64,000 nucleotides of DNA from an uncultured Bacteroidales bacterium (GCA_963813405.1 CAWEYU010000004.1:324814-388813); one strand, 5' to 3'. Shown: positions 7,919 to 26,402, counted from the stretch's first letter. The notes: generated by a model from the sequence alone, not told the origin. Program-made: numbers and translations.

Positions 7919-7933
7919 CTATTTTAAACAACT

Positions 7934-11601: not shown

Positions 11602-11930
11602 ATAGTATTGGGGAAAGATATTGATTAGAAAAAGTGTAAATTGATATCAGTATTTAATTATTAATCTGTTAACTTTTTTTAGGACGAGTCACTGTTTTCT
11701 CGCACTCACTCTTAGTCTTATTTAAAATAAGTATGTTCAATGTGCAGAATGTTTGCTTCGGAACTACCCGGACTTTTATCTCTAATTTTTATCGGAGAGA
11801 AAGAAATCTCCTGATTCATAAAACTAATTTATTCTTTTTTTGTTTAACATGCAATGCTTTAATCTCAAGTAATTGGAAGTTTACAGCAAATTCAAATTCT
11901 AAGTTTTTTCACAAAAAGTAAGTTATCGAA

Positions 11931-12479: not shown

Positions 12480-12494
12480 CATTTGAAATCAGTT

Positions 12495-13805: not shown

Positions 13806-13840
13806 TTAATCATTTGTATTTAGTACACTGTTCAAATTAA

Positions 13841-15193
13841 TTACTCGATTCCAGAACGTTTTAAAGCCGGAACTCTTAATCCTATCCGAAGCGACAATAC
13901 ACCATTCCTGATAGTATTTTCAGTTCGGGCAGACTCTGTAAAAAATTGCTTATTGAATACGTTGATCATGCCGGCTTTATACTGCAATCCAAGATCAACC
14001 GCCATTTTGTTTGAAAACGGAACTGTCACGCCACCTCCAAATATCCATCCGAAATCACAATTTTTAATTGCTCCCTCCATATCATCATATACTGTAGTCT
14101 TTTCATACGTGTATTGATTGTTGGTTTGTAATGCATGATAGGCTTCACCGGTGCACTTTGCATTCAGTTTTACACCTAAATAGGGACCGGTGTTGAAAAA
14201 GAACCTTCCAGATCTGCCAATAGTGAAATTGACTATAGCGGGCAATACAATATAATCTATTGTCATCCTTGTATCGACATAATACCTTGCACCATTGTCA
14301 ATATATCCGTAAAACACATTGCTTGAATCTTTTAAAGAATACCCCGTCCGTTCAAACGACAACCCGGTTTGAAATGATGATTTTGGTGACCACTGAAGGT
14401 TCAGCAAAAATCCAAGTGAAGGGCTGAAATTTGAAGAATACCTTCCATGATCTTCTTTCCCGGAATTCCACAACAGGCTTATCCCGCCAAAGTAAACTAC
14501 ATAGACCTTCGGATTAACTGAATCCCGGACAGGTTTTCCTATTTTTTCCCTATTCTTTAGAAAACCATTATACGTTATTCCGATCATAAAGTCCATGGAA
14601 CCATTCTTCAAATTCAGGCTTTTATAAATATTTTTACGTCCGGTTAAGTAATTTGTATTTAATGATACCTTCAGATTATCCTTCAATGGATAAGAAAGCC
14701 CTACAGAATAAATATATCCATAATCATTTTCAGCTGGTTTGGTTACATTTTCATAGCTCGGACCATAACCAAGGAGAAATGAATAAAACATCCCGGCAGA
14801 AAGATCAAGTTGTGGTTTTGAAGGAATTGAGATCTTCAACTGTGCAGGGAGTGTGAAATAGCTGAAGTTCATCATCTCAAAAGATTGGTAGGGATAATAT
14901 GAACCTGAACCGGAATAATCTATCCAGATGCTCCCGTTAGGGTAAGATTTATGTTCATAATTTATTACGGAATAATTTAAGCCTGTCTGAACTCCAAATA
15001 TTCCGTTGAATGAATAGTTTACATTTATACCTGTAGCTGGTCCTGGTTTAAACTTCCATTTTCCCGAAATATCGTTGCCATGGATATCAGAAAAATTTAT
15101 TCCACTGAAGAATCCGGTTGAAAGCTCTTGTGAATAGGCTGAGGGAACGAAAATTACAAAAATAAGGATCGCAAAAGCCTTAATTTCTTTCAT
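13841..15193 (-). CDS. Outer-membrane beta-barrel (porin-family) protein
   Basis: Signal peptide ending SAYSQ. Alternating aromatic/Gly-rich beta-strand pattern throughout (GINVNYSF, GLNYSV, GLQYKAG). Confidence 0.7.
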   Translation of the reverse strand: MKEIKAFAILIFVIFVPSAYSQELSTGFFSGINFSDIHGNDISGKWKFKPGPATGINVNYSFNGIFGVQTGLNYSVINYEHKSYPNGSIWIDYSGSGSYYPYQSFEMMNFSYFTLPAQLKISIPSKPQLDLSAGMFYSFLLGYGPSYENVTKPAENDYGYIYSVGLSYPLKDNLKVSLNTNYLTGRKNIYKSLNLKNGSMDFMIGITYNGFLKNREKIGKPVRDSVNPKVYVVYFGGISLLWNSGKEDHGRYSSNFSPSLGFLLNLQWSPKSSFQTGLSFERTGYSLKDSSNVFYGYIDNGARYYVDTRMTIDYIVLPAIVNFTIGRSGRFFFNTGPYLGVKLNAKCTGEAYHALQTNNQYTYEKTTVYDDMEGAIKNCDFGWIFGGGVTVPFSNKMAVDLGLQYKAGMINVFNKQFFTESARTENTIRNGVLSLRIGLRVPALKRSGIE

Positions 15194-15386: not shown

Positions 15387-15803
15387 ATGGACAAGAATGA
15401 AATTTTAAAGTATCTGAATGACTGTAAGATTTTCTGGCTGGCAACAACCGAAGGTGACACGCCACATGTAAGAGGCATTTTCCTTCATAAAGCCGATGAA
15501 ACCGGAATCAGCTTCACTACCGCCAAGTTCCGCGACGTTTACAAGCAACTCAAAGCAAATCCTAAAGTTGAATTGTGTTTTTCTCAGGAAAAATCATCAA
15601 TAAGGGTAAGCGGAAGAGTTGTTGAACTCGATGAAGATATGGATCTTAAGAAGGAGATCGTTGCGTCACGTCCTTTCATGAAACCATGGATTGATGCTGC
15701 CGGTTATGCACCTATGGCTGTGTTTAAAGTAGTTGATTGCGTTGCTACCACCTGGCGTTTTGATCAGACTCTGGCGCCAAAAACTTTTGTTTCGCTGAGT
15801 TAA
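15387..15803 (+). CDS. Pyridoxamine 5'-phosphate oxidase-like FMN-binding split-barrel protein
   Basis: 138 aa. FWLATTEGDTPHVRGIF...NPKVELCF pattern. Its 3' end overlaps the convergent radical SAM gene by 4 nt. Confidence 0.75.
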   Translation: MDKNEILKYLNDCKIFWLATTEGDTPHVRGIFLHKADETGISFTTAKFRDVYKQLKANPKVELCFSQEKSSIRVSGRVVELDEDMDLKKEIVASRPFMKPWIDAAGYAPMAVFKVVDCVATTWRFDQTLAPKTFVSLS

Positions 15804-17215
15804 TTTACAGCTCTCATCGTTTTCCTTAACCTGAGCAGGGTGCGGAACATGGGCTCTTTTACGTCCATCTTCGATTGCAGATCCATTGCCTGAATCAACA
15901 TCTCCCTGGGAGGTGTTGTTTCGTAAGAGGGAACGCAGAAATGACGTTTCCCGGCTGCATCCTTTATCATAGCTGCCAGTTTATCTATTCCAAGTTCCGG
16001 AGATACATAATATACAGGCGTAAGAAGGTTATCTTCGGCGCTTATGACCCTCTCTTTAATTGCAACTTTATGTAATGTTGTTCCGGGGTAGATCCTCAAT
16101 CCTGTCGTCATGTGTACCATATCTTCAGGATTAATATAGTTGTCGATAAAATCGAAAGTCTCTCCAAAAGTCTGCTCATTTTCTCCAGGTCCGCCGAACA
16201 GGAAAAACCACATAGTAGGCAGGTTATTATCACTGATCAGTTTAGCCGTCTTGATTAACTGCCCAAGTGTAAAATTCTTTTTTATATTCTTTAACATTTT
16301 TGGTGATGCACTGTCAGGTGTGCAATCGATCTGCGAAAAGCCAGCTCTTATCATCAGATCGAATAACTCTTTGCTCGAATTCCTCGGATTAATCCCCATT
16401 GTCCGTAATCTGGGCCGGATCTCTTTTTTTATAATTTCACGACAGATGTTTTCTGCATGACCTGCAGGATCATTAAAAGTGGAATCGACAAACTCAAAAG
16501 TAACATCCCCAAGACGATGGTAAGCCTGTTCGATCTCATCAGCAACATTTTTCGCATCACGTATCTTATAATTGTGGCCTTCAATAAGTGGATATGTGCA
16601 ATATATACATTTATGTGAACAACCTCTTTTTGTCTGCACCGGGTACGAACCTCTTGATCTGTACGGATCAAAAGAGATAAAACGGTCAACATCGGCAAAA
16701 GGCAGACTTAATATTTCTGCAGGTTTAACGGGAGTTGCTGTACGGGTTTTGTAGCCGTGTATAGCAACATTTGGCAAATCGGCCAGATCCATCTTATTAT
16801 CAAGATGTTCAAGAAGTATTGGGAAGCTCTCATTAGCTTCACCTACGATGCCAATATTTATTCCAAGGTACTCCAGGATGGCTTCAGGGTAGATACTGAA
16901 TCCACTTCCTCCAAGTATGAATATTGCGTTTGATATTTTTCTCAAAGGCTCAGTGAAGTCTGCCTTTATCCTATTGAAATAAACCATGGGATTTTCAAAT
17001 ACCATGTTATCTATATTCCTGATGCCAAAGCCAATATAATCAGGATTAAACTCCTCAACAAGGTTGCAAAGAACTTCAGTGGTACCAAATGTTCCGTCAA
17101 ATACCTTTACAGTGTATTTGTTTTCAATCTGTGCGGCAAGAAGACACAAACCAATAGGGGGAACAGGATAGGGTTGTGTTTCAGTATTGGTGTTTATGAG
17201 AAGAACTTTTTTCAT
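15800..17215 (-). CDS. B12-binding domain radical SAM protein (class B)
   Basis: 471 aa. N-terminal Rossmann-like cobalamin-binding pattern (KVLLINTN...PPIGLCLLAA...DYIGFG). Radical SAM cluster motif CSHKCIYC (CxxxCxxC). Confidence 0.9.
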   Translation of the reverse strand: MKKVLLINTNTETQPYPVPPIGLCLLAAQIENKYTVKVFDGTFGTTEVLCNLVEEFNPDYIGFGIRNIDNMVFENPMVYFNRIKADFTEPLRKISNAIFILGGSGFSIYPEAILEYLGINIGIVGEANESFPILLEHLDNKMDLADLPNVAIHGYKTRTATPVKPAEILSLPFADVDRFISFDPYRSRGSYPVQTKRGCSHKCIYCTYPLIEGHNYKIRDAKNVADEIEQAYHRLGDVTFEFVDSTFNDPAGHAENICREIIKKEIRPRLRTMGINPRNSSKELFDLMIRAGFSQIDCTPDSASPKMLKNIKKNFTLGQLIKTAKLISDNNLPTMWFFLFGGPGENEQTFGETFDFIDNYINPEDMVHMTTGLRIYPGTTLHKVAIKERVISAEDNLLTPVYYVSPELGIDKLAAMIKDAAGKRHFCVPSYETTPPREMLIQAMDLQSKMDVKEPMFRTLLRLRKTMRAVN

Positions 17216-17345
17216 ATCGCCAAATTTACATAATCAACCTGAAGATTTATTTTATTGCGATATGATTTTTATCCTCGCCTATAGGTAGGCATATAAATAC
17301 TCCGGACATTTTATATATTTACTGCTCAGAAAATAATTCTACTGG

Positions 17346-18686
17346 ATGAAAATTTTACTTATTAATCCTCCCCGCTCTCCGGAAAATAAAATTCTTGAAT
17401 ACGCGCCTGAAGATGCAAAACAATTCATTCACAGAAAACTTATCGGGCCTCCCCTCGGACTTTTGACTATTGCTGCTGCAGTAAAAGATTTTGATGTTAC
17501 AGTTATAGATCTGAAGGGAGAATATGATCTTCATCCTGACGCTCCGGGATTAAATGAACTGGTCTTATCATTTCTGAACGAACACAAACCTGATATTATA
17601 GGAGTCACATTTATAGCATCGGAATTCAACTATGGAATAGAGATTTTTCGAACTGCAAAAAAATATAATCCGAAAATCCTCACTGTCGCCGGAGGGCTTC
17701 ATGTTACTATTTGTACCGATGATTTTACAGATCCATCTGTTGACATTTTATGTCCCGGCCATTCAGCAGGGATATTCCGTGACGTTGTTATTGCACATGA
17801 GAAAAGATTGGCTTATGAGAACATTGAGGGCATTATCCTCAATACTAAAAACGGACACAAACGCTCGCCGGCTGTTTCTTCGAAATGGGATGCAGCAAAA
17901 GAGAACTTCATTATGCCCGACCGGAATCACCTAAAACCCTGGTTGTCGACCTATAAGGCAGGTGGTGACACGAAGCCTGCTACATATCTGTTCACATCGC
18001 TTGGCTGTCCTTACGAGTGTATATTCTGCTCAATCTGGCCCCAGCATGATAAAAAATATTATGTCCGTAAAGTAGAGTCCATTATTGATGAGCTAAAACA
18101 GCTTGACGATTATAGTGTTGTAAGGTTTGCGGATGCCAATACCATAGTTGAAATTGGTTTTATTCATTCCCTTTTTGACAGAATAAAAGAGGAAGGAATT
18201 AAGAAAACCTTCATTATGGATATCCGTTTTGATACTGCAGTCAGGCATCCTGACCTTATCGAAAAGCTGGCAGAAGGAGGTCTCAAGGTGGTCATTTGTG
18301 GCTTTGAATCATTCCGTGAAGAGGAATTGAAAAATTATAACAAGAAGTCATCTGCAAAATATATTGAAGAAGCTATTGAAATTTTTCATCGAAACCATAT
18401 TATGCTCAGGGGAAATTATATCATTCCGAGTGATTACCTTCAGGATGATTTCAAGGCACTGGCTGATTATGCCGGTTCGCATAAAGTGGTGTATGCCGGA
18501 TACACTATTCTGACTCCAATGCCCGGAACAATCTTCTATAAAGAGATACAGAATGATATAATCGATTTTGATCTTTCAAAATATAACTTTTTCAATTGCG
18601 TCCTGAAAACGAAATTACCCCTTGAAAAGTTTTATGAAAATGTCGGGAATCTCTGGAAAATAAAGATAGGAAAGGATATTATCTGA
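17346..18686 (+). CDS. B12-binding domain radical SAM protein (class B), paralog of 15800..17215
   Basis: 446 aa. KILLINPP...GPPLGLLTIAAA...DIIGVT N-terminal pattern. CPYECIFC CxxxCxxC motif. Confidence 0.9.
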   Translation: MKILLINPPRSPENKILEYAPEDAKQFIHRKLIGPPLGLLTIAAAVKDFDVTVIDLKGEYDLHPDAPGLNELVLSFLNEHKPDIIGVTFIASEFNYGIEIFRTAKKYNPKILTVAGGLHVTICTDDFTDPSVDILCPGHSAGIFRDVVIAHEKRLAYENIEGIILNTKNGHKRSPAVSSKWDAAKENFIMPDRNHLKPWLSTYKAGGDTKPATYLFTSLGCPYECIFCSIWPQHDKKYYVRKVESIIDELKQLDDYSVVRFADANTIVEIGFIHSLFDRIKEEGIKKTFIMDIRFDTAVRHPDLIEKLAEGGLKVVICGFESFREEELKNYNKKSSAKYIEEAIEIFHRNHIMLRGNYIIPSDYLQDDFKALADYAGSHKVVYAGYTILTPMPGTIFYKEIQNDIIDFDLSKYNFFNCVLKTKLPLEKFYENVGNLWKIKIGKDII

Positions 18687-18695
18687 AAAATAATT

Positions 18696-19610
18696 TTATC
18701 CTTTGACAGTTTCCAGGAATTTGTCAAATTTGGCCACAGAAAATGATTTAAAACTTCCTTCAATAAATCTTGCATTTCGGGTAAGACCGTCACCCGCGCC
18801 ACATTCAAAAAAAATTTCTGTCCCCTGACCTGTTAAAAAGCTCATAGTTTTAAGCCAGTTCATTCTGGAGCTGAGATTCCTGATAACTTCATTCCTGAGG
18901 TCATCATGTGTTTCAATTATTTTCTGATCTATTGCAGAGATATATTTAAAAAGCGGTGGTCTGAAAGATATTTTCTCAATCAGCCGCATAAACTCAGGAG
19001 CAGTGCCAATAAGGAATTGCGAATGATAAGGCTTTGATACTGCGATTGCATTTGCCCTCATGGCTCCTTCGTTTGCAGCAGATGTCAAAACACTTTTCAC
19101 TCCATTGAGCGATCCTGAAATTATGAATGTATGCTTATTATTCTGGTTGCATATTTCAACATCAGGTGCATTACCAATCAACTTCAGGAGGTCTGATTCT
19201 TCTAACCCTATGATCATTCCCATACCGTATGAGCCATCTCCCGCCGCAGCTGATATTACATCCCATGCGCCTCTCACCATTGACAGTCCATCGTTAAAAG
19301 ATACTGATCCGCAATAGTACAGGGCGGCATAAATGCCCATACTATAGCCCGAAACGAAGGAAGAATTGACTTTTTTTGTTTTCAGAATATCGGCCACAGA
19401 ACAGCTGAACAAATAACTGATGTACTGTGATTTTAATTCATCGTTCAGAAAATTATTTTTTTGAAAATCGAATCCGGTAAGATCTGTCTCCAGAAAATTT
19501 GATGCATTTTCAAGCAAATCAATAAAATTATTGTCAAAGAGAGCCAGCAGCTGCTCTTCTGACCCCATATATTCACTTACAAATGCCGGGAATATGATAC
19601 TGGCTTTCAA
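18696..19610 (-). CDS. FabD-like acyl-carrier-protein S-malonyltransferase / acyltransferase
   Basis: 304 aa. Nucleophile elbow GYSMGIYAA (GxSxG). A downstream Arg in MVRGAW. VSKPYHSQF His motif. Confidence 0.8.
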   Translation of the reverse strand: MKASIIFPAFVSEYMGSEEQLLALFDNNFIDLLENASNFLETDLTGFDFQKNNFLNDELKSQYISYLFSCSVADILKTKKVNSSFVSGYSMGIYAALYYCGSVSFNDGLSMVRGAWDVISAAAGDGSYGMGMIIGLEESDLLKLIGNAPDVEICNQNNKHTFIISGSLNGVKSVLTSAANEGAMRANAIAVSKPYHSQFLIGTAPEFMRLIEKISFRPPLFKYISAIDQKIIETHDDLRNEVIRNLSSRMNWLKTMSFLTGQGTEIFFECGAGDGLTRNARFIEGSFKSFSVAKFDKFLETVKG

Positions 19611-19621
19611 GGTTACATGGA

Positions 19622-20020
19622 TTAGGAGAGTAAAACAACCTGAAAAATAACGTAAGTATCTGTATATTCTAAAGAAGATTCGATGCTACGACATTTTTTT
19701 TCATGAAACAGTTCCTGTGCATAGCCAGTTAATCTGATAGAGTATTTTTGAAGGTCTTTCGTGGTCTTAAAGAGTAATTCAATATCCTTCCATGAAATTT
19801 TACTATTAGTCCAGCTTACACCAAAAGCTTTAAAAAACGCCTCTTTACATGAAAAACATAATGGAAAGGTAAGTCCGGGGATGATATTAAGATTAACGTT
19901 AATCTCTGAAGGAGTATATACCAGGTCAGAAAAACCCTTATTGCTCTCCCGGGAAGGTATCTTGGATCTGAATCTGATGATTTCTTCAATATCAATTCCG
20001 CACCCAACAACTTCTTTCAT
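19622..20020 (-). CDS. acpS: Holo-ACP synthase (AcpS-type 4'-phosphopantetheinyl transferase)
   Basis: 132 aa. GCGIDIEEIIRF (Mg ligand Asp) and SCKEAFFKAFG (Glu ligand) motifs are intact. Confidence 0.85.
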   Translation of the reverse strand: MKEVVGCGIDIEEIIRFRSKIPSRESNKGFSDLVYTPSEINVNLNIIPGLTFPLCFSCKEAFFKAFGVSWTNSKISWKDIELLFKTTKDLQKYSIRLTGYAQELFHEKKCRSIESSLEYTDTYVIFQVVLLS

Positions 20021-20043
20021 TCTCCTTAAGTTCCGGAATGTTA

Positions 20044-20358
20044 TTATGCAAGCTCCACGATCTTATTTTCATGCACAATCATCAGCATTTGAGTATCAAT
20101 CAATTGTCCGATTGTTTCAACAGGGTGCTTAACAATATATTTTGCAATTGTTTTTAATTCAATATTAAGATCATATTTCTTCTTAAATATTTCAATCAGT
20201 TCGAGAAACATAAGAGAATCACCCTCAATGTCAGAAATGATATTCGTGGTTTCACTGATCTGGTTGATGTCAACTTCGCATTCTTCAGAAAAGAAATTAT
20301 ATACAATATTTTTTACCTCTTCTCTTGTATTTTCTGTAATTTTCCCCATTTGATACAA
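20044..20358 (-). CDS. Dedicated acyl carrier protein
   Basis: 104 aa, acidic. Phosphopantetheine attachment motif GDSLMFLEL (DSL). Confidence 0.85.
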   Translation of the reverse strand: MYQMGKITENTREEVKNIVYNFFSEECEVDINQISETTNIISDIEGDSLMFLELIEIFKKKYDLNIELKTIAKYIVKHPVETIGQLIDTQMLMIVHENKIVELA

Positions 20359-20397
20359 TATTATTATTATAAAGATCTGAAAAATTCCTGCCGAAAT

Positions 20398-21612
20398 TTA
20401 AGAATATTTTTTTAAAACCAATGATGCATTGTGCCCTCCGAAAGCAAAAGAGTTCGAAATGGCGGTTTTAACGTCATGTTTTCTGCCAATATTTGGAACG
20501 TAATCCAGGTCAAGTTCAGGATCGGGAAAATCGTAGTGAATAGTAGGTGTTACAAAACCATTAATGATACTCATAATGGTTACAACTCCTTCAATTGCTC
20601 CTGCAGCACCAATCGTATGTCCGATCATTGATTTTGTTGATGAAACCGGAATCTTTAAAGCACGGTTACCAAATACTTTTTTTATAGCCATGGTTTCATA
20701 CTTATCATTCAGAGTAGTAGAAGTACCATGCGCATTAATGTAATCTACCTCATCAGGTTGTACTTTTGCATTTTTAAGAGCTTTCTCAATTGTCAGCATT
20801 ATACCTTCACCATCCTTCATAGGTGCCATGATGTTGTATGCTTCGCTTGTCAGTGCATATCCTGCAAGCTCGGCATATATTTTAGCATTTCTTCGCAGGG
20901 CCGACTCTTCAGATTCAAGAATCATAATACCGGCGCCTTCCCCTATCACAAATCCATCTCTGTCTCTTGAGAATGGACGACATGCTTTTTCAGGGTCGCC
21001 GTTAACCGAAAGTGCATACAGTTCGTTGAATCCTTCAATTTCCTCCCTGTTAATTGCCGAATCAGCCCCACCGGTAATTATTATGTCTGCAAAGCCATTT
21101 CGTATCATGTCAAAAGCTATACCTATTGCATATGCCGATGAAGCGCAGGCAGACGCAACTGTAAAATTAGGTCCCAGCAGCTTATAATCGAGCGATATCC
21201 ATGCAGACATTGAATTATTCATGCTCTTAAGCACCCTGTTCTTTGAAGTGGTTCCCTTTTCTGTGCTTGTATTGGCCGTACTTACAACACCCAGAATCAC
21301 GGCACATCTGGTTTTGTCAAGCAACTCAAAATCAATAGCTGCACTAAGTACAGCATCTCTTGCACATACATAGCACATTTTAGTTACCCTTGTAGTCTGA
21401 TCTGCCATTCTTTTCTTAATGTAATTACTGGCATATTCTTCAAATGTATCAGGCAACTGCGCGGCGATCCGGGTCTGTAAGCCTTCCGGATCAAACAAAG
21501 TAATTTGCTTTACACCGTTCTTCCCGGAAATCATATTTTCCCAGTTTGTCTTCAAATCAAGCCCCAGAGATGTTATTACATTAATTCCTGTTACTACTAC
21601 TTTTTTATCCAT
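20398..21612 (-). CDS. Beta-ketoacyl-ACP synthase (FabF/KAS II-like) with an intact Cys-His-His triad
   Basis: 404 aa. ASACASSAYAIG (Cys), NAHGTSTTLND (His), GHTIGAAGAIE (His), and C-terminal NSFAFGGHNASL. Confidence 0.92.
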   Translation of the reverse strand: MDKKVVVTGINVITSLGLDLKTNWENMISGKNGVKQITLFDPEGLQTRIAAQLPDTFEEYASNYIKKRMADQTTRVTKMCYVCARDAVLSAAIDFELLDKTRCAVILGVVSTANTSTEKGTTSKNRVLKSMNNSMSAWISLDYKLLGPNFTVASACASSAYAIGIAFDMIRNGFADIIITGGADSAINREEIEGFNELYALSVNGDPEKACRPFSRDRDGFVIGEGAGIMILESEESALRRNAKIYAELAGYALTSEAYNIMAPMKDGEGIMLTIEKALKNAKVQPDEVDYINAHGTSTTLNDKYETMAIKKVFGNRALKIPVSSTKSMIGHTIGAAGAIEGVVTIMSIINGFVTPTIHYDFPDPELDLDYVPNIGRKHDVKTAISNSFAFGGHNASLVLKKYS

Positions 21613-21637
21613 TTTACTAAATTCATGAAGGAAGTCT

Positions 21638-21645
21638 CAAAAGTA
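21638..21645 (-). promoter_or_regulatory. Candidate -7 promoter element (TActTTTG on the minus strand) for the KS-ACP-AcpS-FabD operon
   Basis: Plus-strand caaaagta is the reverse complement of TAnnTTTG. It lies 26 nt upstream of the minus-strand ATG at 21612. Confidence 0.4.
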
Positions 21646-21736
21646 AGAACTTTTCTAAATCTAATTGCAATATCATTTACTATCACTTTTTCTTATCATC
21701 ATGGTCACTCTATATAGATAATACGGACGAAAACTA

Positions 21737-21744
21737 TATTTTTG
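21737..21744 (+). promoter_or_regulatory. Candidate -7 promoter element (TAttTTTG) for the thioesterase-ECH-KAS III operon
   Basis: Exact TAnnTTTG match, 55 nt upstream of ATG 21800, in the divergent intergenic region. Confidence 0.4.
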
Positions 21745-21799
21745 TCATGTTAATGGAGATTGGGATGCAAAATTAATGAACTCATAATAAAAAACAGCA

Positions 21800-22183
21800 A
21801 TGTTTAATTATAAACTCAATGTACGCGGATATGAACTTGATTCTTATGGTCATGTCAATAATGCCGTGTACCTCAACTACTTTGAACAGGCACGTTGGGA
21901 AATTTTCCGGCAGCTTGATCTGACAGACTACTTCCGCGATAATAAATTATTTCTGGTAGTAACAGAGATAAAAGCAAGGTATAGCAATGAAGCAAAATTA
22001 TTTGATGAGCTCCTGATACGTACAAAAGTAGAGAAAGAGGCACCCTATCTTGTTTTCTATCAAAAAATGTATTTTGGCGATTCAAAGGTAAAATCCTGTT
22101 CAGCTATAATAAAAACACTGCTGCGAGATAAGGAAAAACACACACTCGATATCCCGGAGGATCTTCTGAATAAACTGAAATGA
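21800..22183 (+). CDS. Hotdog-fold acyl-CoA/acyl-ACP thioesterase (4HBT/YbgC type)
   Basis: 127 aa. VRGYELDSYGHVNNAVYLNYFEQAR catalytic Asp region. Confidence 0.8.
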   Translation: MFNYKLNVRGYELDSYGHVNNAVYLNYFEQARWEIFRQLDLTDYFRDNKLFLVVTEIKARYSNEAKLFDELLIRTKVEKEAPYLVFYQKMYFGDSKVKSCSAIIKTLLRDKEKHTLDIPEDLLNKLK

Positions 22184-22926
22184 TGATGAAAGATCAAAAA
22201 AACTATACCTGGGAAAAAACCGGAGAAATTGGCATTTTATCACTTAATAATCCCCCTGAGAATTTCATCGATGAACCTGAATTTATTGGTAAAGATCAAA
22301 TAAAAGAGATATTAAATGATAGCTCTTTAAAGGGGATAATAATTAACGGCACCGGACGTCATTTTTCTGCAGGTGCAAACCTTGATAAGCTGCAGCTTTT
22401 GGCTCAGGATGAAGTTTTTCTGAACAAAAAAATGTCAGAAGGTAAAGATCTTGTTACTATTATCGGGAACATGAATATCCCTGTGATTGCTGCCATCAGA
22501 GGAGTTTGTTTTGGAGCGGGTTTTGAGATTGCTCTTGCCTGTCATATACGTATCTGCAGTGAAAACGCATTGTTTTCATTTCCCGAGGCAAATCATGGCA
22601 TTATGCCGGGTCTTGGTGGCACCGTAATGCTTACAAAGCTTTTAGGTGAAGGAAAATCCGCTGAAATAATTCTTACAAGTGAAATAGTAAATTCACAAAA
22701 AGCTCTCCATCTGAAATTAGTTGATTATGTTGTTCCGGTAAAAGAACTAAAGGCCTTTTCATTAAGTCTGCTGGAAAGGATGACTTCAGACAGAGAGATA
22801 GATGTGATACATTCTGTAATGAAATCTATTCATAACTCCCGAAATTTATCATTTGAAAATGCCCTCAAAGAGGAGACTAAATTGTTCTGCTCACTGGTAC
22901 TGAAGAGAATGCAGGATAAACAATAG
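22180..22926 (+). CDS. Enoyl-CoA hydratase/isomerase (crotonase) family protein
   Basis: 248 aa. Oxyanion-hole pattern GTGRHFSAGANL, then CFGAGFEIALACHIRI...FSFPEANHGIMPGLGGT. ATGA overlap with the thioesterase stop. Confidence 0.85.
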   Translation: MMMKDQKNYTWEKTGEIGILSLNNPPENFIDEPEFIGKDQIKEILNDSSLKGIIINGTGRHFSAGANLDKLQLLAQDEVFLNKKMSEGKDLVTIIGNMNIPVIAAIRGVCFGAGFEIALACHIRICSENALFSFPEANHGIMPGLGGTVMLTKLLGEGKSAEIILTSEIVNSQKALHLKLVDYVVPVKELKAFSLSLLERMTSDREIDVIHSVMKSIHNSRNLSFENALKEETKLFCSLVLKRMQDKQ

Positions 22927-22933
22927 GAACTGA

Positions 22934-23299
22934 ATGAAGCAAAAACATGCATACAGCAAATATGTTGAGACAATTAGAAGGGAAGATTTCTTTTCTCTTT
23001 ATGAATGCTGCAAACCAGAATCTTTATTTTCAAAAAGAGAAATGCTTGCATTCTCCTTCCCGAAGGATGCAAGAAGCCTGGCAGGAAGATATCTGATTAA
23101 AAAAGCAATCTGCAACTACCTGAACAAGCCCGGGAGCATGAGTGAAATTGAAATACTGAATAATGATTCCGGAAAACCAGAGGTAATACTTGGGGATCAA
23201 TTGTTTAATACGATTGAGGTTGCCGGAATAAAAAAGATACTTTGCTCCATATCACATTCAAAAAATCTTATAGCTGGAATGACAATAATCTGCTTCTAG
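22934..23299 (+). CDS. AcpS-like protein lacking both metal-ligand residues (probable pseudoenzyme)
   Basis: 121 aa. By eye it aligns with AcpS over LAGRYLIKKAICNYL...EILNNDSGKPEV...SISHSKNLIAGMTII. The GxDxxE N-terminal motif is replaced by SKYVETIRR, and the KEAF Glu is Lys (KKAI). Confidence 0.6.
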   Translation: MKQKHAYSKYVETIRREDFFSLYECCKPESLFSKREMLAFSFPKDARSLAGRYLIKKAICNYLNKPGSMSEIEILNNDSGKPEVILGDQLFNTIEVAGIKKILCSISHSKNLIAGMTIICF

Positions 23300-23923
23300 A
23301 TGCTGAAGACAATTACCTGGAAAACTGAAAATGAAATTGGCCACCTGATTCTTAATCAGCCTCCGGCAAATACAATGACTCGACTTTTTTTTGATGAGCT
23401 GAGCATTATCACCTCAAGAATAGTTGCACAGTCTTCTGTTAAGGCCATTATTATTTACGGTAGTGGCAGACATTTCTCCGCCGGTGCTGACCCTTCTGAA
23501 CTCAGAAAAAGGATAGTTGAGAACTTGCCTTCTGATTATCCGAATGAACTTCCATCATTCCTTGAAGAAAACACCCGGAGTTTTCTTTTTTTCGAACAAC
23601 TGCGGATACCCTCCTTTGCAGCTATCAGAGGAGCATGCTTTGGATCTGCAATGGAACTTGCATTATTCTGCAAATTCAGGATCTGTGCTGAAGGAGCTGT
23701 TCTCGGTTTTCCTGAAACCTCTTTCGGATTAATGCCGGGATGTGGTGGTACAGTTAAACTTCCTGCAATTGCAGGACAGGCAAAAGCGATGGAGATCATT
23801 ATTGGGGGAAGGAATTTTTCGGCTGAAGAGGCCTATAAGTGGGGAATAATCCATAAAATAGTTGACAGGAAAGTATTGATCAGCGAGACTGTGAAACTAG
23901 CCAGAGATATTATCAGCAGGTAA
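23300..23923 (+). CDS. Short enoyl-CoA hydratase/isomerase (crotonase) family protein
   Basis: 207 aa. GSGRHFSAGADP, CFGSAMELALFCKFRI, GFPETSFGLMPGCGGT. Starts immediately after the upstream TAG. Confidence 0.8.
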   Translation: MLKTITWKTENEIGHLILNQPPANTMTRLFFDELSIITSRIVAQSSVKAIIIYGSGRHFSAGADPSELRKRIVENLPSDYPNELPSFLEENTRSFLFFEQLRIPSFAAIRGACFGSAMELALFCKFRICAEGAVLGFPETSFGLMPGCGGTVKLPAIAGQAKAMEIIIGGRNFSAEEAYKWGIIHKIVDRKVLISETVKLARDIISR

Positions 23924-23933
23924 AAGACAATAT

Positions 23934-25055
23934 ATGGATAATGCCAGAAACAACGAAGTGAAAATTACGGGATCAGGAAGTTTTCTGCCCGGATCACCTA
24001 TCTCTATTGATAATGTAGATCATTACCTGGGTGAACTGACTGAGGCACCAAAAAAAATAAGGGAATGGCTTCAGCGGATGAAGCTGATGATGAAAGAAAT
24101 GCTTGAAGTGGAAAATTATTATTATGCCATTGATCCGGTCACCAGGGAGTTTACTGAAGACAACGTTTCAATGTCATTTAAGGCTGCTGAAAAGGCACTG
24201 AAAATGGCAAATATTCCGGCAAGTGAAATCGAATTCATAGCTTATGGAAGTGCCCACCAGAATCAGATGCCCACTGCCTCGGTAAGGATCCAGGAAGCGT
24301 TGGGTATAGAGAGATGCGGCGAAATCTCCATTCATGCCAATTGTACCTCTGCATACAAAGCATTGCTGGTTGCATTTGACTTTATAAAAAGCGGCAGGTA
24401 TAAAAATGCACTTGTCATTTCATCAGGTATTTCATCATCCGAACTTCGCGCAGAATATTATAATCAACCGATAGTAAAGAAAGAGGAATTGTTCCTTCGG
24501 TATTTTCTTTCTGATGGTGCAGGAGCAATTGTCCTTCAGGCCGATACTCCGGGAAAAGGCGGATTATATATCGAAAATGTATATATTGAATCTGCAGGAG
24601 GGAAGAAGCCGAGTGCCATGAAGAACAAGCGGCCTGCATACTTTATGAATCCAAGGGAGGAGTTTGAGAAGGGATTACATCATCTGTCCCAAATGTTTCA
24701 GAATGAGTTAAGAAATAATTTTCATGAACATGACGGCACCATTTTCTTTAACGGTCTCAAACGTATGCTCGAAATATATCCGGCAGACCTCTCCAGGCTT
24801 AAGTACTTCCAGGTAAACTTCCCTTCAAAACATATCGCAGAAATGGTGATCGAAGAGTGTGCAGCACTTGGGGTAGCAAAAGAGACTCTTTACACAAAAA
24901 TGTCCAGTATGGGTTATGCAGGACCTCCGATGGTATTTATATGTCTCGATAAATTAATGCGCGAAGAGCCGTTTGTGAGCGGGGATCTTGTTCTGAGTTT
25001 TGTGACGGAGGTGAGTAAGTTTATGCAAGCAGGGTTTACTTTAAAATTTAAATAA
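23934..25055 (+). CDS. KAS III (FabH)/thiolase-fold-like condensing enzyme or acyltransferase, atypical active site
   Basis: 373 aa. Cys region ISIHANCTSAYKALLVAFDFIKSG and GDLVLSF near the C-terminus fit the FabH-like fold. The positions where I expect HQAN and GNTS read FQVN and GYAG. Confidence 0.65.
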   Translation: MDNARNNEVKITGSGSFLPGSPISIDNVDHYLGELTEAPKKIREWLQRMKLMMKEMLEVENYYYAIDPVTREFTEDNVSMSFKAAEKALKMANIPASEIEFIAYGSAHQNQMPTASVRIQEALGIERCGEISIHANCTSAYKALLVAFDFIKSGRYKNALVISSGISSSELRAEYYNQPIVKKEELFLRYFLSDGAGAIVLQADTPGKGGLYIENVYIESAGGKKPSAMKNKRPAYFMNPREEFEKGLHHLSQMFQNELRNNFHEHDGTIFFNGLKRMLEIYPADLSRLKYFQVNFPSKHIAEMVIEECAALGVAKETLYTKMSSMGYAGPPMVFICLDKLMREEPFVSGDLVLSFVTEVSKFMQAGFTLKFK

Positions 25056-25100
25056 CCTAAGTTGCCGGTTTTAAAATTTATTATAATTTGGACTATGATA

Positions 25101-25236
25101 TTCCCTTCCCTTAAATATTTCTTAACCCATCCCCAACCCTTCCCTTAAGCATAAGGGAAGGGAGATCTAATTAATAATCATTGGTTTACACCCCCTTCCC
25201 TTAACCTTAAGGGAAGGGGGATGGGGGGATGGGTTC
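25101..25236. repeat. Nested GC-rich palindromic element: unit cccttcccttaa x3 plus its complement x2, two hairpins, an outer inverted repeat and G4/i-motif tracts
   Basis: Hairpin 1 at 25137..25162 (cccttccctta-agca-taagggaaggg). Hairpin 2 at 25191..25220 (cccccttcccttaa-cc-ttaagggaaggggg). Outer inverted repeat aacccatcccc (25124..25134) / ggggatgggtt (25225..25235). GGGAAGGGGGATGGGGGGATGGG at 25211..25233. Confidence 0.9.
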
Positions 25237-25331
25237 AGAAGATATCTAATGAGAATGGAATATATTTGAACTTAAATAATAATCAGCAACTTGAGTTAAA
25301 TAGAAGTACTTAAAGTGAACTAAAGTTTGGA

Positions 25332-26402
25332 GTGACTAAAGTTATAAAAAAAATAGGGGTGGTCGGAGAAGGTAAGATGGGTTCATCAATCTTCCTTTAT
25401 CTGAATGGCTTCGATTTCAACCTCATCTGGCTTTGCAGTTCAGAAACTGAAACAGAAAAGGCAAGGAAAACATTCCTGAAAAAACTGAGGCTTCAGTTTC
25501 AATGCGGAGTATTAAATGAACAGGAATATGCATTAAAGTCAGACAATACCAAAATCACGGCCAGTATCAAAGATCTGGAAGATTGCGATCTGATAATTGA
25601 AGCCATCTCAGAAGATATTGACAGCAAGAAACTTCTGTTTGAATCTCTTAATAAAGCTGTTAATGAATCGTGCATTTTCACCAGTAACTCATCATCATAT
25701 ACACCTTCACAAATATTCTCAACCGGAATAAGGCCTAAGCGTATTGCAGGTCTGCACTTTTTCTTTCCCGTGACAATGAAAAACACTGTAGAAATGATTT
25801 CCGGATCACAAACATCTCTTGAAACCAAAGAATCTCTGAATCAGTTCCTGATAAAAATCAAGAAAAGACCGTTTCACCAGAATGACTCAAATGCTTTTAT
25901 ACTGAACCGGTTACTGGTTGATTTTCAGGCTGATGCTTTTAATGTTATCTGTGAAGGCAAACTATCCTTTAAGGAGATCGATGAGATTGTAAAACAACGA
26001 TTTTTCCCGATAGGAGTATTTGAATTCTTTGATCATGTAGGGATCGATGTGATGCTATCTTCTATCAGGTCGTACACTCATAATTGCATTAACAAAGTAT
26101 TCTACGAGTCACTTTTTCAAAAGCTGGAAGAACTGGTAAACCTGAACTTCCTGGGGATAAAAACGAAACGTGGTATCTATGATTATTCAACTCCGCCGGA
26201 GATATTACAACCACAAAGTGCTAAAACTGAAAACTTATCAGAATATAAAAATAATGTTGCTGATCGTCTATGGGGCTGTTACATCGGGTCCGTTAATTCA
26301 GTAATAGAGTCCGGAATCTGCTCACGGGAAGAACTTGCCTTCTATGTGAAAGACTATTTAGGAATGGATACAGATCCTTTTACATTGAGCGGGAAGGAGT
26401 AA
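25332..26402 (+). CDS. 3-hydroxyacyl-CoA dehydrogenase family protein (NAD-binding)
   Basis: 356 aa, GTG start. Rossmann IGVVGEGKMGSSI, TSNSSS, GLHFFFPV motifs. Confidence 0.85.
   Translation: MTKVIKKIGVVGEGKMGSSIFLYLNGFDFNLIWLCSSETETEKARKTFLKKLRLQFQCGVLNEQEYALKSDNTKITASIKDLEDCDLIIEAISEDIDSKKLLFESLNKAVNESCIFTSNSSSYTPSQIFSTGIRPKRIAGLHFFFPVTMKNTVEMISGSQTSLETKESLNQFLIKIKKRPFHQNDSNAFILNRLLVDFQADAFNVICEGKLSFKEIDEIVKQRFFPIGVFEFFDHVGIDVMLSSIRSYTHNCINKVFYESLFQKLEELVNLNFLGIKTKRGIYDYSTPPEILQPQSAKTENLSEYKNNVADRLWGCYIGSVNSVIESGICSREELAFYVKDYLGMDTDPFTLSGKE

Follow-up and report, generated by a model that had tools for sequence, protein, structure and literature searches.

What is made by an 11-kb block of genes that combines a dedicated carrier protein (ACP) with two cobalamin-binding radical SAM enzymes? 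The block lies at positions 15387-26402 of a 64,000-nucleotide stretch of DNA from an uncultured Bacteroidales bacterium, referred to here as the window. A sequence-only reading had described it as an orphan, ACP-dependent fatty acid/polyketide-like cluster whose product would plausibly be an unusual methylated, branched, cyclised or cross-linked acyl chain. We consider it highly probable that the block is a genuine, co-conserved and uncharacterised ACP-plus-B12-radical-SAM biosynthetic cluster. Most likely, it joins two fatty-acyl pieces head to head to give a ring-bearing lipid, which is then modified by the two B12 radical enzymes.

Gene content and organization of the block

All 13 of the 13 genes listed earlier were reproduced, with their coordinates, domains and catalytic motifs, by ORF calls and Pfam/NCBIfam scans. 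Given Pfam E-values down to 1e-46 and hundreds of metagenomic orthologues that are 50-98% identical, the genes are real and not chance ORFs. The tight packing with overlaps is evident from the intergenic gaps, which are, from the PNPOx-like gene to HBD: -4, 130, 9, 11, 23, 39, 187, -4, 7, 0, 10 and 276 bp; the overlapping PNPOx-like and rSAM1 genes are convergent and not co-transcribed. The GC content of the block (0.37-0.39) is the same as that of its surroundings. Ten genes form the core, in three groups: KS-ACP-AT-rSAM2, KAS3-ECHb-ECHa-TE and HBD-rSAM1.

On the minus strand, KS (20398-21612; 404 aa; Cys155, His295, His332) is a FabF-like elongating ketosynthase that fails the NCBIfam FabF cutoff (446 bits against 494) and passes that of PRK07314 (435 against 387); judged by its sequence, it is a single, near-canonical FabF without a chain-length-factor partner. 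The dedicated ACP (20044-20358; 101-104 aa with a C-terminal extension) has a PP-binding domain with the DSL motif at Ser48 and is 61-75% identical across phyla. The AcpS-type phosphopantetheinyl transferase (19622-20020; 132 aa; PF01648) retains the GIDIEE and CKEAF motifs, and is present in the window's lineage but undetected at most other loci. AT (18696-19610; 304 aa) is a malonyl-CoA:ACP transacylase-like protein with an Acyl_transf_1 domain. It keeps Ser90 of GYSMG, Arg113 and His196, lacks the N-terminal GQGSQ motif, and scores 147 bits with MdcH and 139 bits with FabD, below both cutoffs; it is of the malonyl type.

The plus strand carries TE (21800-22183; 127 aa), a hotdog acyl-thioester thioesterase with a 4HBT_2 domain that scores 65 bits with the YbgC/FadM family (cutoff 68.7); its top PDB match is E. 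coli YbaW (FadM). ECHa (22180-22926; 248 aa; ECH_1, 129 bits) is a crotonase-fold enoyl-thioester hydratase/dehydratase that has both catalytic Glu motifs (FE-IALAC and FPE) and generic short-chain enoyl-CoA hydratases as top PDB matches. The second crotonase, ECHb (23300-23923; 207 aa; ECH_1, 125 bits), is C-terminally short, covering profile positions 2-191 of 251; it also has both Glu motifs, and N-terminal hydratase domains of FadB-type proteins are among its PDB matches. HBD (25332-26402; 356 aa), an NAD-dependent 3-hydroxyacyl-thioester dehydrogenase, matches 3HCDH_N (127 bits), 3HCDH (62 bits) and, below cutoff, PRK08268 (181 bits). ECHa, ECHb, HBD and TE all look like ordinary CoA-dependent beta-oxidation enzymes, and their action on ACP thioesters is assumed here. 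Between the crotonase genes lies an AcpS-like pseudo-enzyme (22934-23299; 121 aa) with weak matches to AcpS models. It had been called a dead AcpS paralog, in agreement with the loss of GxDxxE and the replacement of the Mg-binding KE by KK. Homologues occupy the equivalent position at loci L085 (41% identical), L012 and L002, and the protein is possibly an ACP-docking subunit.

Outside the core, the plus-strand PNPOx-like small flavoprotein (15387-15803; 138 aa; PF01243, 48.5 bits) has a NimC/NimA family protein, 2ig6, as its top PDB match; by blastp, its orthologue adjoins rSAM1 in 13 of 80 loci from metagenome-assembled genomes (MAGs) and in both close-relative contigs. The KAS3-HBD spacer holds nested GC-rich palindromes (25103-25240, no strand assigned) and five copies of the 12-mer CCCTTCCCTTAA, which occurs nowhere else in the window (0.49 copies expected). 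In relatives, a third radical SAM gene is found at the position of this spacer. As had been claimed, Pfam scans of 15387-26402 found no FabG, FabZ/FabA, FabI or other enoyl-reductase domain.

Conservation and linkage in uncultured genomes

The core is co-localised in MAGs of Bacteroidales, Spirochaetota, Leptospirales, Fibrobacterota, Myxococcota and Desulfocapsaceae, and its hosts are uncultured anaerobes that span at least six phyla. None of the 80 retrieved loci is from a cultured isolate, and the hosts are mostly from low-oxygen habitats, such as lake hypolimnia, peat and digesters. Forty loci are well flanked, with at least 9 kb on either side of the rSAM1 homologue. At least one other core gene is present in 35 of these, and at least seven of nine in 29; HBD is found in 31 and rSAM2 in 32. 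Gene content is retained, but its order varies among Bacteroidales, Spirochaetota, Desulfocapsaceae, Fibrobacterota and the window. A contig whose rSAM1 is 83% identical has the same order as the window from KAS3 to PNPOx, its HBD side being truncated.

This co-localisation across phyla in varying orders supports the description of the block as an orphan cluster with two class-B radical SAM partners, and it contradicts the refuting case named earlier, in which radical SAM genes would never be co-conserved with the ACP/KS genes. We found no characterised cluster that matches the gene set and no publication characterising it. The block is best explained as a self-contained biosynthetic cluster that is horizontally mobile.

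Relatives carry further genes beside the core. Most Bacteroidales homologues have GT2-DUF2062, an MMPL-PlsC-methyltransferase fusion, a CrtI-like oxidase and a FabA-like dehydratase nearby; the missing export and anchoring set of aryl-polyene/flexirubin clusters, noted earlier, is a trait of this window and not of most Bacteroidales homologues. A BtrH-like gene of Spirochaetota scores 310 bits with the NCBIfam DarH equivalog, above the cutoff of 300; it adjoins a DarG-like gene (E 1e-15, below cutoff), and a second ACP gene (ACP2) comes next. In about a dozen Spirochaetota/Leptospirales loci, DarH and ACP2 are found together a few kb downstream of rSAM1, and in a Desulfocapsaceae locus (L082) the two stand directly upstream of it. 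Both genes are also present at L079, and a Pseudomonadota MAG (L040) has a DarH-like gene near rSAM1 with ACP2 undetected. COMT-type O-methyltransferases repeatedly adjoin the cluster in relatives. The 64-kb window itself has no DarH, DarG-like, O-methyltransferase or export genes, and a DarA/StlC aromatase was detected neither there nor in any scanned protein of relatives.

KAS3 is most similar to StlD/DarB

KAS3 (23934-25055, plus strand; 373 aa) is a thiolase-fold condensing enzyme and the most conserved core enzyme, 63-71% identical across phyla. Its NCBIfam scores are highest for the StlD/DarB family (120 bits, cutoff 450), followed by DarB (96 bits) and FabH (75 bits). The top PDB sequence match is StlD (E 3e-15; profile E 2e-21), and Foldseek places the predicted fold closer to StlD (TM 0.76-0.78, E 2e-29) than to FabH (TM about 0.67). 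StlD-specific insertions are present. In contrast to the Cys-His-Asn site of StlD, KAS3 has Cys137-Asn295-Tyr328: StlD His302, the residue mutated in entry 5gk2, aligns with the invariant Asn295, and the StlD Asn with the invariant Tyr328. His and Asn are kept in distant relatives, as in the aligned canonical-type relatives. The earlier label of an atypical KAS III-like protein was right as to atypical; more exactly, sequence and predicted fold suggest a head-to-head condensing enzyme most similar to StlD/DarB but with an altered triad, in a new Cys-Asn-Tyr branch of that clade. Since the His and Asn of StlD are lost, the reaction may differ. The resemblance points to a cyclohexanedione/resorcinol-type product instead of a modified linear chain.

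The cobalamin-binding radical SAM enzymes

rSAM1 (15800-17215, minus strand; 471 aa; C199xxxC203xxC206) and rSAM2 (17346-18686, plus strand; 446 aa; C221xxxC225xxC228) both have Pfam B12-binding and Radical_SAM domains. The top NCBIfam match of rSAM1 is TIGR04072 (310.9 bits, under the cutoff of 360), followed by BzaD (179) and TsrM (109). TIGR04072 is the curated ‘lipid biosynthesis B12-binding/radical SAM protein’ family mentioned in the sequence-only reading, and it does exist. The AF2 model of rSAM1 (pLDDT 91) has TsrM as its top Foldseek match (TM 0.82-0.85, E 6e-33). TsrM, a tryptophan C2-methyltransferase, and BzaD, a benzimidazole C-methylase, are both cobalamin-dependent radical SAM enzymes that methylate aromatic sp2 carbons. 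They are the closest characterised relatives of rSAM1, with a common predicted B12-binding and radical SAM core, but identity reaches only about 21%, TsrM is longer by about 100 residues, and the genomic context of rSAM1 is lipid/polyketide and not thiopeptide or cobamide synthesis. The invariant R66 of rSAM1 aligns with the cobalamin-face Arg69 of TsrM, and Thr246 with TsrM Glu273, the iron ligand behind the non-radical mechanism of TsrM; rSAM1 may methylate in another way, or not at all. About a quarter of rSAM1 homologues are surrounded by housekeeping genes. rSAM2, which is 59-68% identical across Bacteroidales and Spirochaetota, matches HpnR (125 bits) and BchE (98 bits) best, both far under cutoffs.

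Proposed pathway and alternatives

We tentatively favour a cyclohexanedione/resorcinol route, leading to a C-methylated lipid of cyclohexanedione or resorcinol type. The analysis shows which domains are encoded and how the genes are linked; all steps that follow are inferred. AcpS would activate the dedicated ACP, AT would load malonate, and KS would extend an acyl primer once to a 3-oxoacyl-ACP. Part of this 3-oxoacyl pool, or a pool bound to CoA, would be turned into a 2-enoyl thioester by HBD as ketoreductase and the crotonases as dehydratases, and the dead AcpS-like protein may dock the ACP. No enoyl reductase would be needed, because 3-oxoacyl and 2-enoyl thioesters are the two StlD/DarB-type substrates; the ‘beta-processing and release functions’ of the earlier description are better read as their supply. 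In a head-to-head reaction that combines a Michael addition with a Claisen condensation, KAS3 would then fuse these two thioesters into a carboxy-cyclohexane-1,3-dione with one or more alkyl chains, which the hotdog thioesterase would release. With DarA missing, oxidation of the ring towards a resorcinol may fall to the PNPOx-like flavoprotein. Finally, the TsrM/BzaD-like rSAM1 and the distantly HpnR/BchE-like rSAM2 would C-methylate or otherwise rework ring or chain. In relatives, DarH/C45-type acyltransferases, O-methyltransferases, and the glycosyltransferase and MMPL-PlsC module would decorate, anchor and export the product; the window has none of these genes.

KS, HBD and ECH genes without an enoyl reductase, a malonyl-type (MdcH/FabD) AT, the linkage of the core genes, the StlD-like sequence and predicted fold of KAS3, the dialkylresorcinol-type neighbours in relatives, and the TsrM/BzaD affinity of rSAM1 with its conserved Arg count for this route. 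Against it count the failed StlD/DarB cutoff, the lost His and Asn, the missing DarA/StlC, the lack of DarH, DarG-like, O-methyltransferase and export genes in the window, the beta-oxidation-like character of ECHa, ECHb, HBD and TE, the separability of the two halves, the rSAM1 homologues among housekeeping genes and the Thr at the position of TsrM Glu273.

Closest to the earlier proposal, and rather unlikely in our estimate, is a type II fatty acid/polyketide synthase without enoyl reductase, in which an iterating KS would yield hydroxy- or polyunsaturated acyl-ACP (a ladderane-like or anaerobic polyunsaturated fatty acid system). HBD would be the ketoreductase and the crotonases dehydratase/isomerase, KAS3 would just prime or shuttle acyl groups, and the radical SAM enzymes would methylate, cross-link or cyclise the chain. 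Crotonase-fold enzymes that act on ACP thioesters are precedented in FabM and RpfF. TIGR04072 as top rSAM1 family and the absent enoyl reductase fit this scheme, as do the Bacteroidales FabA-like dehydratase and CrtI/CrtD-like oxidase, which echo two genes of anammox Cluster I, amxFabZ and one that is phytoene-dehydrogenase-like. antiSMASH ‘ladderane’ clusters of unassigned role are also reported from several non-anammox phyla (PMC9902471). However, rSAM1 is under the TIGR04072 cutoff, a lone KS sets the cluster apart from polyene type II systems and from the KS/CLF pair of anammox bacteria, and the window has neither FabZ nor a homologue of the relatives' phytoene-dehydrogenase-like oxidase; its CrtI-like gene (39302-40822) has no tblastn similarity to that oxidase. 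The most conserved core enzyme, StlD-like, and the accompanying DarH/DarG-like genes would be left unexplained.

A doubtful alternative is a starter-unit module, in which a short acyl unit carried on CoA would be processed by ECHa, ECHb, HBD and TE and loaded onto the ACP by KAS3, as a Cys-dependent acyltransferase, for extension by KS; the radical SAM enzymes would add methyl branches at unactivated carbons, giving an unusual anaerobe membrane fatty acid. The His/Asn loss argues against malonyl decarboxylation by KAS3, and some KAS III-like proteins, such as DpsC and CerJ, are acyltransferases and not condensing enzymes. The sp3 C-methylase HpnR as top rSAM2 match and the FAS-like AT, ACP and KS also agree with this reading, and the occurrence in many free-living anaerobes would suit a membrane role. 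Yet known KAS III-type acyltransferases show other active-site patterns, KAS3 retains the StlD-specific insertions, no ketoreductase/dehydratase/enoyl-reductase set would finish saturated chains on the dedicated ACP, and the accessory genes of relatives are of the pigment/dialkylresorcinol type and not of phospholipid synthesis.

That a beta-oxidation-like operon (TE, two ECH, a thiolase-like gene and HBD) merely neighbours an ACP/radical SAM operon, with no common product, is very improbable. The resemblance of ECH, HBD and TE to ordinary beta-oxidation enzymes and the five transcription units in the window agree with it, and the modules are apart at two loci: at L084, rSAM/AT/AcpS/ACP are separate from KS/KAS3, and at L085 no rSAM gene lies within 10 kb of TE-ECH-KAS3-HBD-KS. 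However, both halves lie on one 82-kb contig in the organism of L084, KAS3 is not a thiolase, KS, which is part of the ACP half in the window, accompanies the ‘catabolic’ half at L085, and the modules are together, across phyla and in differing orders, in 29 of the 40 well-flanked loci.

An HMG-CoA-synthase (HMGS)-type beta-branching cassette (AT, ACP, decarboxylating KS, HMGS, ECH1 and ECH2), as in trans-AT polyketide synthases, has a similar list of AT, ACP, KS, a thiolase-fold enzyme and two crotonases, but is barely credible: KAS3 has no HMG_CoA_synt match and scores 20-39 bits with HMGS models against 120 with StlD/DarB, KS keeps the active-site Cys that is Ser in the decarboxylating KS of such cassettes, ECHa and ECHb, each with the two Glu residues, look like generic hydratases, and no polyketide synthase is nearby.

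Comparison with known systems

Anammox Cluster I, which has been proposed for ladderanes, TIGR04072 and antiSMASH ‘ladderane’ systems of non-anammox bacteria resemble this cluster in a dedicated ACP, a FabF-like KS and a B12-binding radical SAM enzyme, in TIGR04072 as top family model and in an orphan product; Bacteroidales relatives add the FabA-like dehydratase and phytoene-desaturase-like oxidase. The link drawn earlier to ladderane is weak, because rSAM1 is below cutoff (311 bits against 360) and Cluster I has a KS/CLF-like FabF pair, amxFabZ and a phytoene-dehydrogenase-like enzyme where the window has one intact KS and neither of the latter. The published gene list of Cluster I in turn lacks StlD-like, crotonase, HBD and thioesterase genes. 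A ladderane cluster was rejected.

Flexirubin and aryl-polyene clusters differ in their KS/CLF pair, ammonia-lyase, CoA ligase, SDR ketoreductase and LolA, in export and anchoring genes that are wholly missing from the window, and in described gene lists without radical SAM enzymes. On the other hand, most Bacteroidales MAG clusters have GT2-DUF2062 and a fusion of a PlsC-type acyltransferase with an MMPL exporter, together with a FabA-like dehydratase and a methyltransferase; their glycosyltransferase, PlsC acyltransferase and exporter set is that of flexirubin clusters (PMC3992019). Flexirubin itself holds a DarB-made dialkylresorcinol.

The DarAB(C)/StlCD pathways of Pseudomonas, Chitinophaga, Azoarcus and Photorhabdus, which make dialkylresorcinols, cyclohexanediones and stilbenes, have the DarA/StlC aromatase that this cluster lacks. 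KAS3 is far under their family cutoff with its Cys-Asn-Tyr site; the two crotonases, 3-hydroxyacyl dehydrogenase, thioesterase and two cobalamin radical SAM enzymes are outside described dar gene lists; and the hosts here are uncultured genomes of mostly low-oxygen habitats. Nevertheless, the StlD/DarB dialkylresorcinol pathway is a better analogue than ladderane: the condensing enzyme is nearest StlD by sequence and predicted fold, the encoded domains could supply 3-oxoacyl and 2-enoyl thioesters, relatives carry the DarH equivalog, a DarG-like gene and FlxJ-like methyltransferases, and a dedicated ACP and KS are present as in the Azoarcus dialkylresorcinol cluster, in which darB is accompanied by an ACP, a KS and a BtrH-like gene (PMC3949708).

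Gene content and organization of the cluster

Using an ORF listing together with Pfam and NCBIfam scans, we located every gene that the sequence-only reading had assigned to the 11-kb block at 15387-26402. The block begins with a PNPOx-like gene encoding a small flavoprotein (15387-15803, + strand), followed by the two B12-binding radical SAM enzymes, rSAM1 (15800-17215, - strand) and rSAM2 (17346-18686, + strand). On the - strand lie the FabD/MdcH-like acyltransferase AT (18696-19610), AcpS (19622-20020), ACP (20044-20358) and the FabF-like ketosynthase KS (20398-21612), while the + strand carries the hotdog thioesterase TE (21800-22183), the crotonase ECHa (22180-22926), an AcpS-like protein (22934-23299), the second crotonase ECHb (23300-23923), the KAS III-like condensing enzyme KAS3 (373 aa; 23934-25055) and the 3-hydroxyacyl-CoA dehydrogenase HBD (25332-26402). 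These genes form five transcription units with within-operon gaps of -4 to 39 bp, as tight as had been described, and the base composition of the block is like that of its surroundings. A scan for sigma-70 promoters and terminators was uninformative for the organism. The 3' end of HBD overlaps a convergent gene for a 603-aa MG2-domain protein by 49 bp (26354-26402).

KS is a nearly canonical FabF, and its Cys155/His295/His332 triad is present, as is the DSL motif of ACP, both as originally noted. AT is of the malonyl type (MdcH/FabD) and keeps its GYSMG motif, Arg and His. ECHa and ECHb keep both catalytic Glu residues and look like ordinary short-chain enoyl-CoA hydratases rather than the ECH1/ECH2 of polyketide beta-branching. 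TE most closely resembles E. coli YbaW (FadM). Domain scans of the block agree with the claimed lack of FabG, FabZ and FabI, revealing no FabG, FabZ/FabA, FabI or other enoyl-reductase. The AcpS-like protein, previously called a dead paralog, does lack the Mg-binding Asp and has Lys in place of the AcpS Glu. Since its positional homologues in other phyla also lack this Asp and carry the same Lys, it is a conserved pseudo-enzyme.

Two further loci of the window may be mentioned. At 34055-37755 (- strand), genes for a radical SAM-SPASM protein (379 aa), an MFS_3 transporter and a DUF5074 protein stand in tandem, adjoined by a dienelactone hydrolase gene (33232-34074), possibly a small locus for peptide modification or export. 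At 38355-40822 (- strand) there is an overlapping gene pair of carotenoid or squalene type, encoding a squalene/phytoene synthase and a CrtI/HpnE-like amine oxidase, in a genome that looks like that of an anaerobic member of the Bacteroidota. By tblastn, this pair bears no similarity to the PDH-like gene found in clusters of the type of L007, a Bacteroidales relative.

rSAM1 and rSAM2 are predicted cobalamin-dependent enzymes

In both rSAM1 and rSAM2 a B12-binding domain is fused to a radical SAM domain that keeps the CxxxCxxC motif, i.e. they have the architecture of class B (cobalamin-dependent) radical SAM enzymes and are predicted to bind cobalamin. rSAM1 matches PF02310 as well as PF04055, the motif being C199/C203/C206. 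Its top NCBIfam family is TIGR04072 at 310.9 bits, below the curated cutoff of 360, followed by BzaD and TsrM; the Spirochaetota orthologue of rSAM1 scores 311.8 bits against TIGR04072 and rSAM2 only 23.5 bits. rSAM2 is HpnR/BchE-like, and distantly so.

The predicted model of rSAM1 (pLDDT 91) is by far closest to TsrM (TM 0.82-0.85, E 6e-33), with the next structure at E 3e-23. TsrM Arg69 is aligned to the invariant R66 of rSAM1, and TsrM Glu273, the iron-ligating residue of that enzyme, to Thr246. The non-radical mechanism of TsrM should not be assumed for rSAM1, given that Arg69 is conserved and Glu273 is not.

KAS3 represents a derived branch beside StlD/DarB

KAS3 is among the most conserved of the core proteins, being 63-71% identical across phyla. 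Its top two NCBIfam matches are the StlD/DarB family (NF005293; 120.3 bits, cutoff 450) and the DarB exception model (96.4 bits, cutoff 550), both below threshold, with FabH at 74.7 bits, and its best PDB sequence match is StlD. The same enzyme is the best Foldseek match of the AlphaFold model of KAS3 (pLDDT 79; TM 0.76-0.78, E 2e-29), with FabH at a TM of about 0.67 (E 7e-24), and an FLRW/YxLSDGAGA segment is common to KAS3 and StlD. As modelled, KAS3 has an StlD-like fold that includes the clade-specific insertions.

Profile alignment shows that KAS3 keeps Cys137 and is without the catalytic Cys-His-Asn of StlD/DarB: StlD His302 (mutated in PDB entry 5gk2) is aligned to the invariant Asn295 of KAS3, and the StlD Asn to the invariant Tyr328. 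An exhaustive search with KAS3 yielded only 36 representative clusters at E < 1e-30. In alignment A4, the Cys...Tyr pattern was common to close and intermediate relatives of KAS3, whereas distant StlD-like relatives (25-27% identical) had the canonical His and Asn. Based on the scores, the fold and the active-site pattern, KAS3 belongs to a distinct, derived branch beside StlD/DarB, and by its sequence scores it falls outside the curated family.

The cluster is co-conserved across phyla

Homologues of rSAM1 number in the thousands. A scan with the rSAM1 alignment, using one genome per GTDB species, returned 80 loci, in which rSAM1 is at most 56% identical to that of the window. They span Bacteroidales (including Prolixibacteraceae and Draconibacterium), Spirochaetota, Leptospirales, Fibrobacterota, Myxococcota, Desulfocapsaceae and one member of the Pseudomonadota. 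No cultured host turned up among these 80 genome loci, all of which are from MAGs, and a 3.5-Mb contig proved to be a long-read metagenome assembly.

We defined a ten-gene core, namely rSAM1 plus KS, ACP, AT, rSAM2, KAS3, ECHb, ECHa, TE and HBD, detected by tblastn/blastp with the window proteins. In the 40 well-flanked loci (at least 9 kb on each side), rSAM1 is accompanied by at least one further core gene in 35 and by at least seven of the nine in 29; KAS3, KS and rSAM2 are each found in 32. The order of the core genes varies by lineage among Bacteroidales, Desulfocapsaceae, Fibrobacterota, Spirochaetota and the window; in Spirochaetota, for example, it is KS-ACP-AT-rSAM2, KAS3-ECHb-ECHa-TE and HBD-rSAM1. 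Because the content is kept while the order is shuffled, functional coupling is favoured over inherited synteny. Thus, the co-conservation of the radical SAM and ACP/KS genes, on which the sequence-only reading depended, holds across phyla.

A contig with an rSAM1 that is 83% identical keeps the gene order of the window from KAS3 to PNPOx, its HBD side being cut off. Since this contig retains the cluster order yet has different flanks, the block is a discrete unit. In the window, about 7 kb of surface-protein genes (8093-15193), encoding a Listeria-Bacteroides repeat protein, a BNR protein and an OMP beta-barrel protein, lie between the DXP synthase and PNPOx-like genes; they look like a lineage-specific insertion, because the DXP synthase gene directly adjoins the cluster in the contig just described.

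There are exceptions to the coupling of rSAM1 to the core. Roughly one in four rSAM1 homologues is located among housekeeping genes, and the halves of the cluster are apart in two loci, L084 and L085. In L084 (rSAM1 72% identical), rSAM2-DUF6498-rSAM1-PNPOx-DUF3078-AT-AcpS-ACP stand together at 7571-14530, and the KS and KAS3 operon is elsewhere on the same 82-kb contig, a split which shows that the cluster is made up of two modules. Four Fibrobacterota loci (Chitinivibrionales; L002, L003, L012 and L021) have a variant without rSAM2, and in all four a full-length histidinol-dehydrogenase gene is directly upstream of rSAM1. This neighbour is probably a housekeeping hisD kept by shared ancestry, as its product matches the Histidinol_dh Pfam model over its full length at 484 bits.

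A literature search for a characterised equivalent found none, in keeping with the orphan status first proposed. We are highly confident that this is a genuine, co-conserved and uncharacterised biosynthetic cluster combining an ACP with B12 radical SAM enzymes.

Accessory genes in related clusters

In most Bacteroidales versions of the cluster, HBD and KAS3 flank a third B12 radical SAM gene (L007 15387-16946), and there are further genes for a haem-binding-domain protein, a FabA-like dehydratase, a GT2-DUF2062 glycosyltransferase, an MMPL-PlsC-methyltransferase fusion, a CrtI/CrtD-like flavin oxidase and a C45-family acyltransferase. These correspond to the export/anchoring set described for flexirubin clusters (PMC3992019), and none is present within the 64-kb window. 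Hence, the claimed lack of the export/anchoring hallmarks of aryl-polyene/flexirubin clusters is true of the window and does not extend to most Bacteroidales loci, where that set stands beside the homologous cluster.

In the window, the 276-bp KAS3-HBD spacer contains a GC-rich palindrome of 26-30 nt in two copies (CCCTTCCCTTAA..TTAAGGGAAGGG; 25103-25240), which sit within an outer inverted repeat (25119-25134 / 25225-25240). A 12-mer occurs five times there and nowhere else in the window (0.49 expected). As this is the place of the third radical SAM gene in typical Bacteroidales relatives, the palindromes may mark a past deletion, or may act as a terminator or regulatory hairpin.

In Spirochaetota, conserved genes downstream of rSAM1 encode a BtrH-like protein scoring above the cutoff of the NCBIfam equivalog 'BtrH-related acyltransferase DarH' (310 vs. 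300 bits), a second ACP (ACP2), another B12 radical SAM enzyme (L001 17195-18604) and a COMT-type O-methyltransferase. Directly upstream of DarH is a DarG-family-like gene, which is sub-threshold (57.4 bits vs. a cutoff of 70, E 1e-15). A DarH-ACP2 pair lies directly upstream of rSAM1 in the Desulfocapsaceae locus L082 and is present also in L079, while a Pseudomonadota MAG (L040) has a DarH-like gene near rSAM1, with ACP2 undetected. DarH and the DarG family protein are absent from the window. The extra radical SAM enzymes of the relatives score 55-61 bits against TIGR04072, to which they are unrelated, and have HpnJ/BchE or MJ_0865-type methylases as their nearest matches; lineages thus differ in how many radical SAM tailoring steps they have.

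Proposed pathway and alternatives

DarB-type enzymes join a 3-oxoacyl thioester and a 2-enoyl thioester to give a carboxy-cyclohexanedione (PMC6836626). In the cluster, malonyl loading and the single KS would give 3-oxoacyl-ACP, and HBD and the hydratases would provide a 2-enoyl thioester, presuming that these CoA-type enzymes act on ACP substrates. With KS, HBD and hydratases present and enoyl reductase absent, the enzyme set would supply both DarB substrates and nothing more. KAS3 would then form the ring and TE would release the ring compound; the PNPOx-like flavoprotein may stand in for the missing DarA, and modification of the ring or chain, by C-methylation or otherwise, would fall to the cobalamin radical SAM enzymes. 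What the relatives carry in addition, namely DarH, DarG-like, O-methyltransferase and flexirubin-type export genes, is consistent with DarB-like ring chemistry. Against it stand the altered triad and sub-threshold family score of KAS3, the missing DarA, the lack of the decisive accessory genes in the window, the separable halves, and the CoA-type character of the enzymes presumed to act on ACP substrates. We put forward the DarB-like ring route tentatively, as the likeliest of the readings but one that may well be wrong.

The absence of an enoyl reductase is also part of another reading, in which a FAS/PKS makes an unsaturated chain that the radical SAM enzymes then modify. This ladderane-like possibility is somewhat unlikely: the sequence-only interpretation stands as regards an orphan ACP/B12 radical SAM cluster, and its ladderane link is weak, with rSAM1 sub-threshold and the hallmark genes absent. 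The changed active site of KAS3 touches on a starter-unit module, with KAS3 as an acyltransferase leading to methyl-branched fatty acids, which we judge improbable beside its StlD-like modelled fold. The halves do occur apart, and core content is nonetheless kept in shuffled order; that the block is merely two adjacent, unrelated operons is very improbable. An HMGS beta-branching cassette, suggested by the gene list, is rejected as scarcely credible, since HMGS models give 20-39 bits for KAS3, KS keeps Cys155 with no Cys-to-Ser decarboxylating KS, and the crotonases are generic. A link to membrane-spanning-lipid synthase was also considered, and nothing relevant was found in the paper examined.

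In its most specific form, the DarB-like ring route would work without oxygen and yield alkyl-cyclohexanedione or resorcinol (quinol-like) lipids methylated on the ring, via a Cys-Asn-Tyr branch of StlD/DarB and a TsrM-like cobalamin finishing enzyme that acts on a lipid. This version is unlikely as it stands. If true, it would mean a new class of lipid, made by uncultured anaerobes from six or more phyla and serving perhaps in the outer membrane, as a signal or as a redox carrier; a first defined function for the radical SAM group beside the 'ladderane' family; and a Cys-Asn-Tyr branch that had gone unrecognised. Were the product a distinctive methylated ring lipid of anoxic-lake, peat and digester bacteria, it could be of use as a biomarker.

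Comparison with known systems

According to a 2026 review (PMC13459092), modification by radical SAM enzymes has been proposed for only two fatty-acid-type lipids, ladderanes and the jawsamycin intermediate, and 'ladderane-like' clusters have been reported repeatedly, unexplained, in non-anammox bacteria and phyla (PMC9902471). The block represents a widespread family of orphan clusters in compact and self-sufficient form, and its 11-kb size and its own AcpS make it a tractable case. It links the orphan ladderane-like clusters to dialkylresorcinol-type chemistry, defines a new active-site variant of StlD/DarB enzymes, and gives the radical SAM family nearest TIGR04072 a class of substrates that can be tested.

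Anammox Cluster I has a B12 radical SAM enzyme, a KS/CLF-like FabF pair in which one member has a dead triad, and, in addition, amxFabZ and a phytoene-dehydrogenase-like enzyme. In contrast, the window has no such pair and a single KS whose Cys155-His295-His332 triad is intact; domain scans reveal no FabA/FabZ or amine-oxidase domain in 15387-26402, and the PDH-like and FabA-like genes of L007-type clusters have no tblastn match in the window. Membership in the ladderane family or cluster was rejected on the sub-threshold rSAM1 score and the missing hallmark genes. Of the features of dialkylresorcinol (dar) clusters, an adjacent DarA/StlC aromatase had no match when the 13 proteins of the cluster and accessory proteins from relatives were scanned with NCBIfam, while DarH and a sub-threshold DarG-family match are seen in Spirochaetota relatives and are absent from the window. 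In the Azoarcus dialkylresorcinol cluster (PMC3949708), darB is accompanied by an ACP, a KS and a BtrH-like gene. Compared with aryl-polyene/flexirubin clusters, domain scans show no KS/CLF pair, ammonia-lyase or CoA ligase, or SDR ketoreductase, and the set of glycosyltransferase, PlsC acyltransferase and MMPL exporter is absent from all 64 kb. Taken together, the block is distinct from anammox Cluster I, TIGR04072, the curated StlD/DarB family and the aryl-polyene/flexirubin clusters, and has parts in common with each of them.
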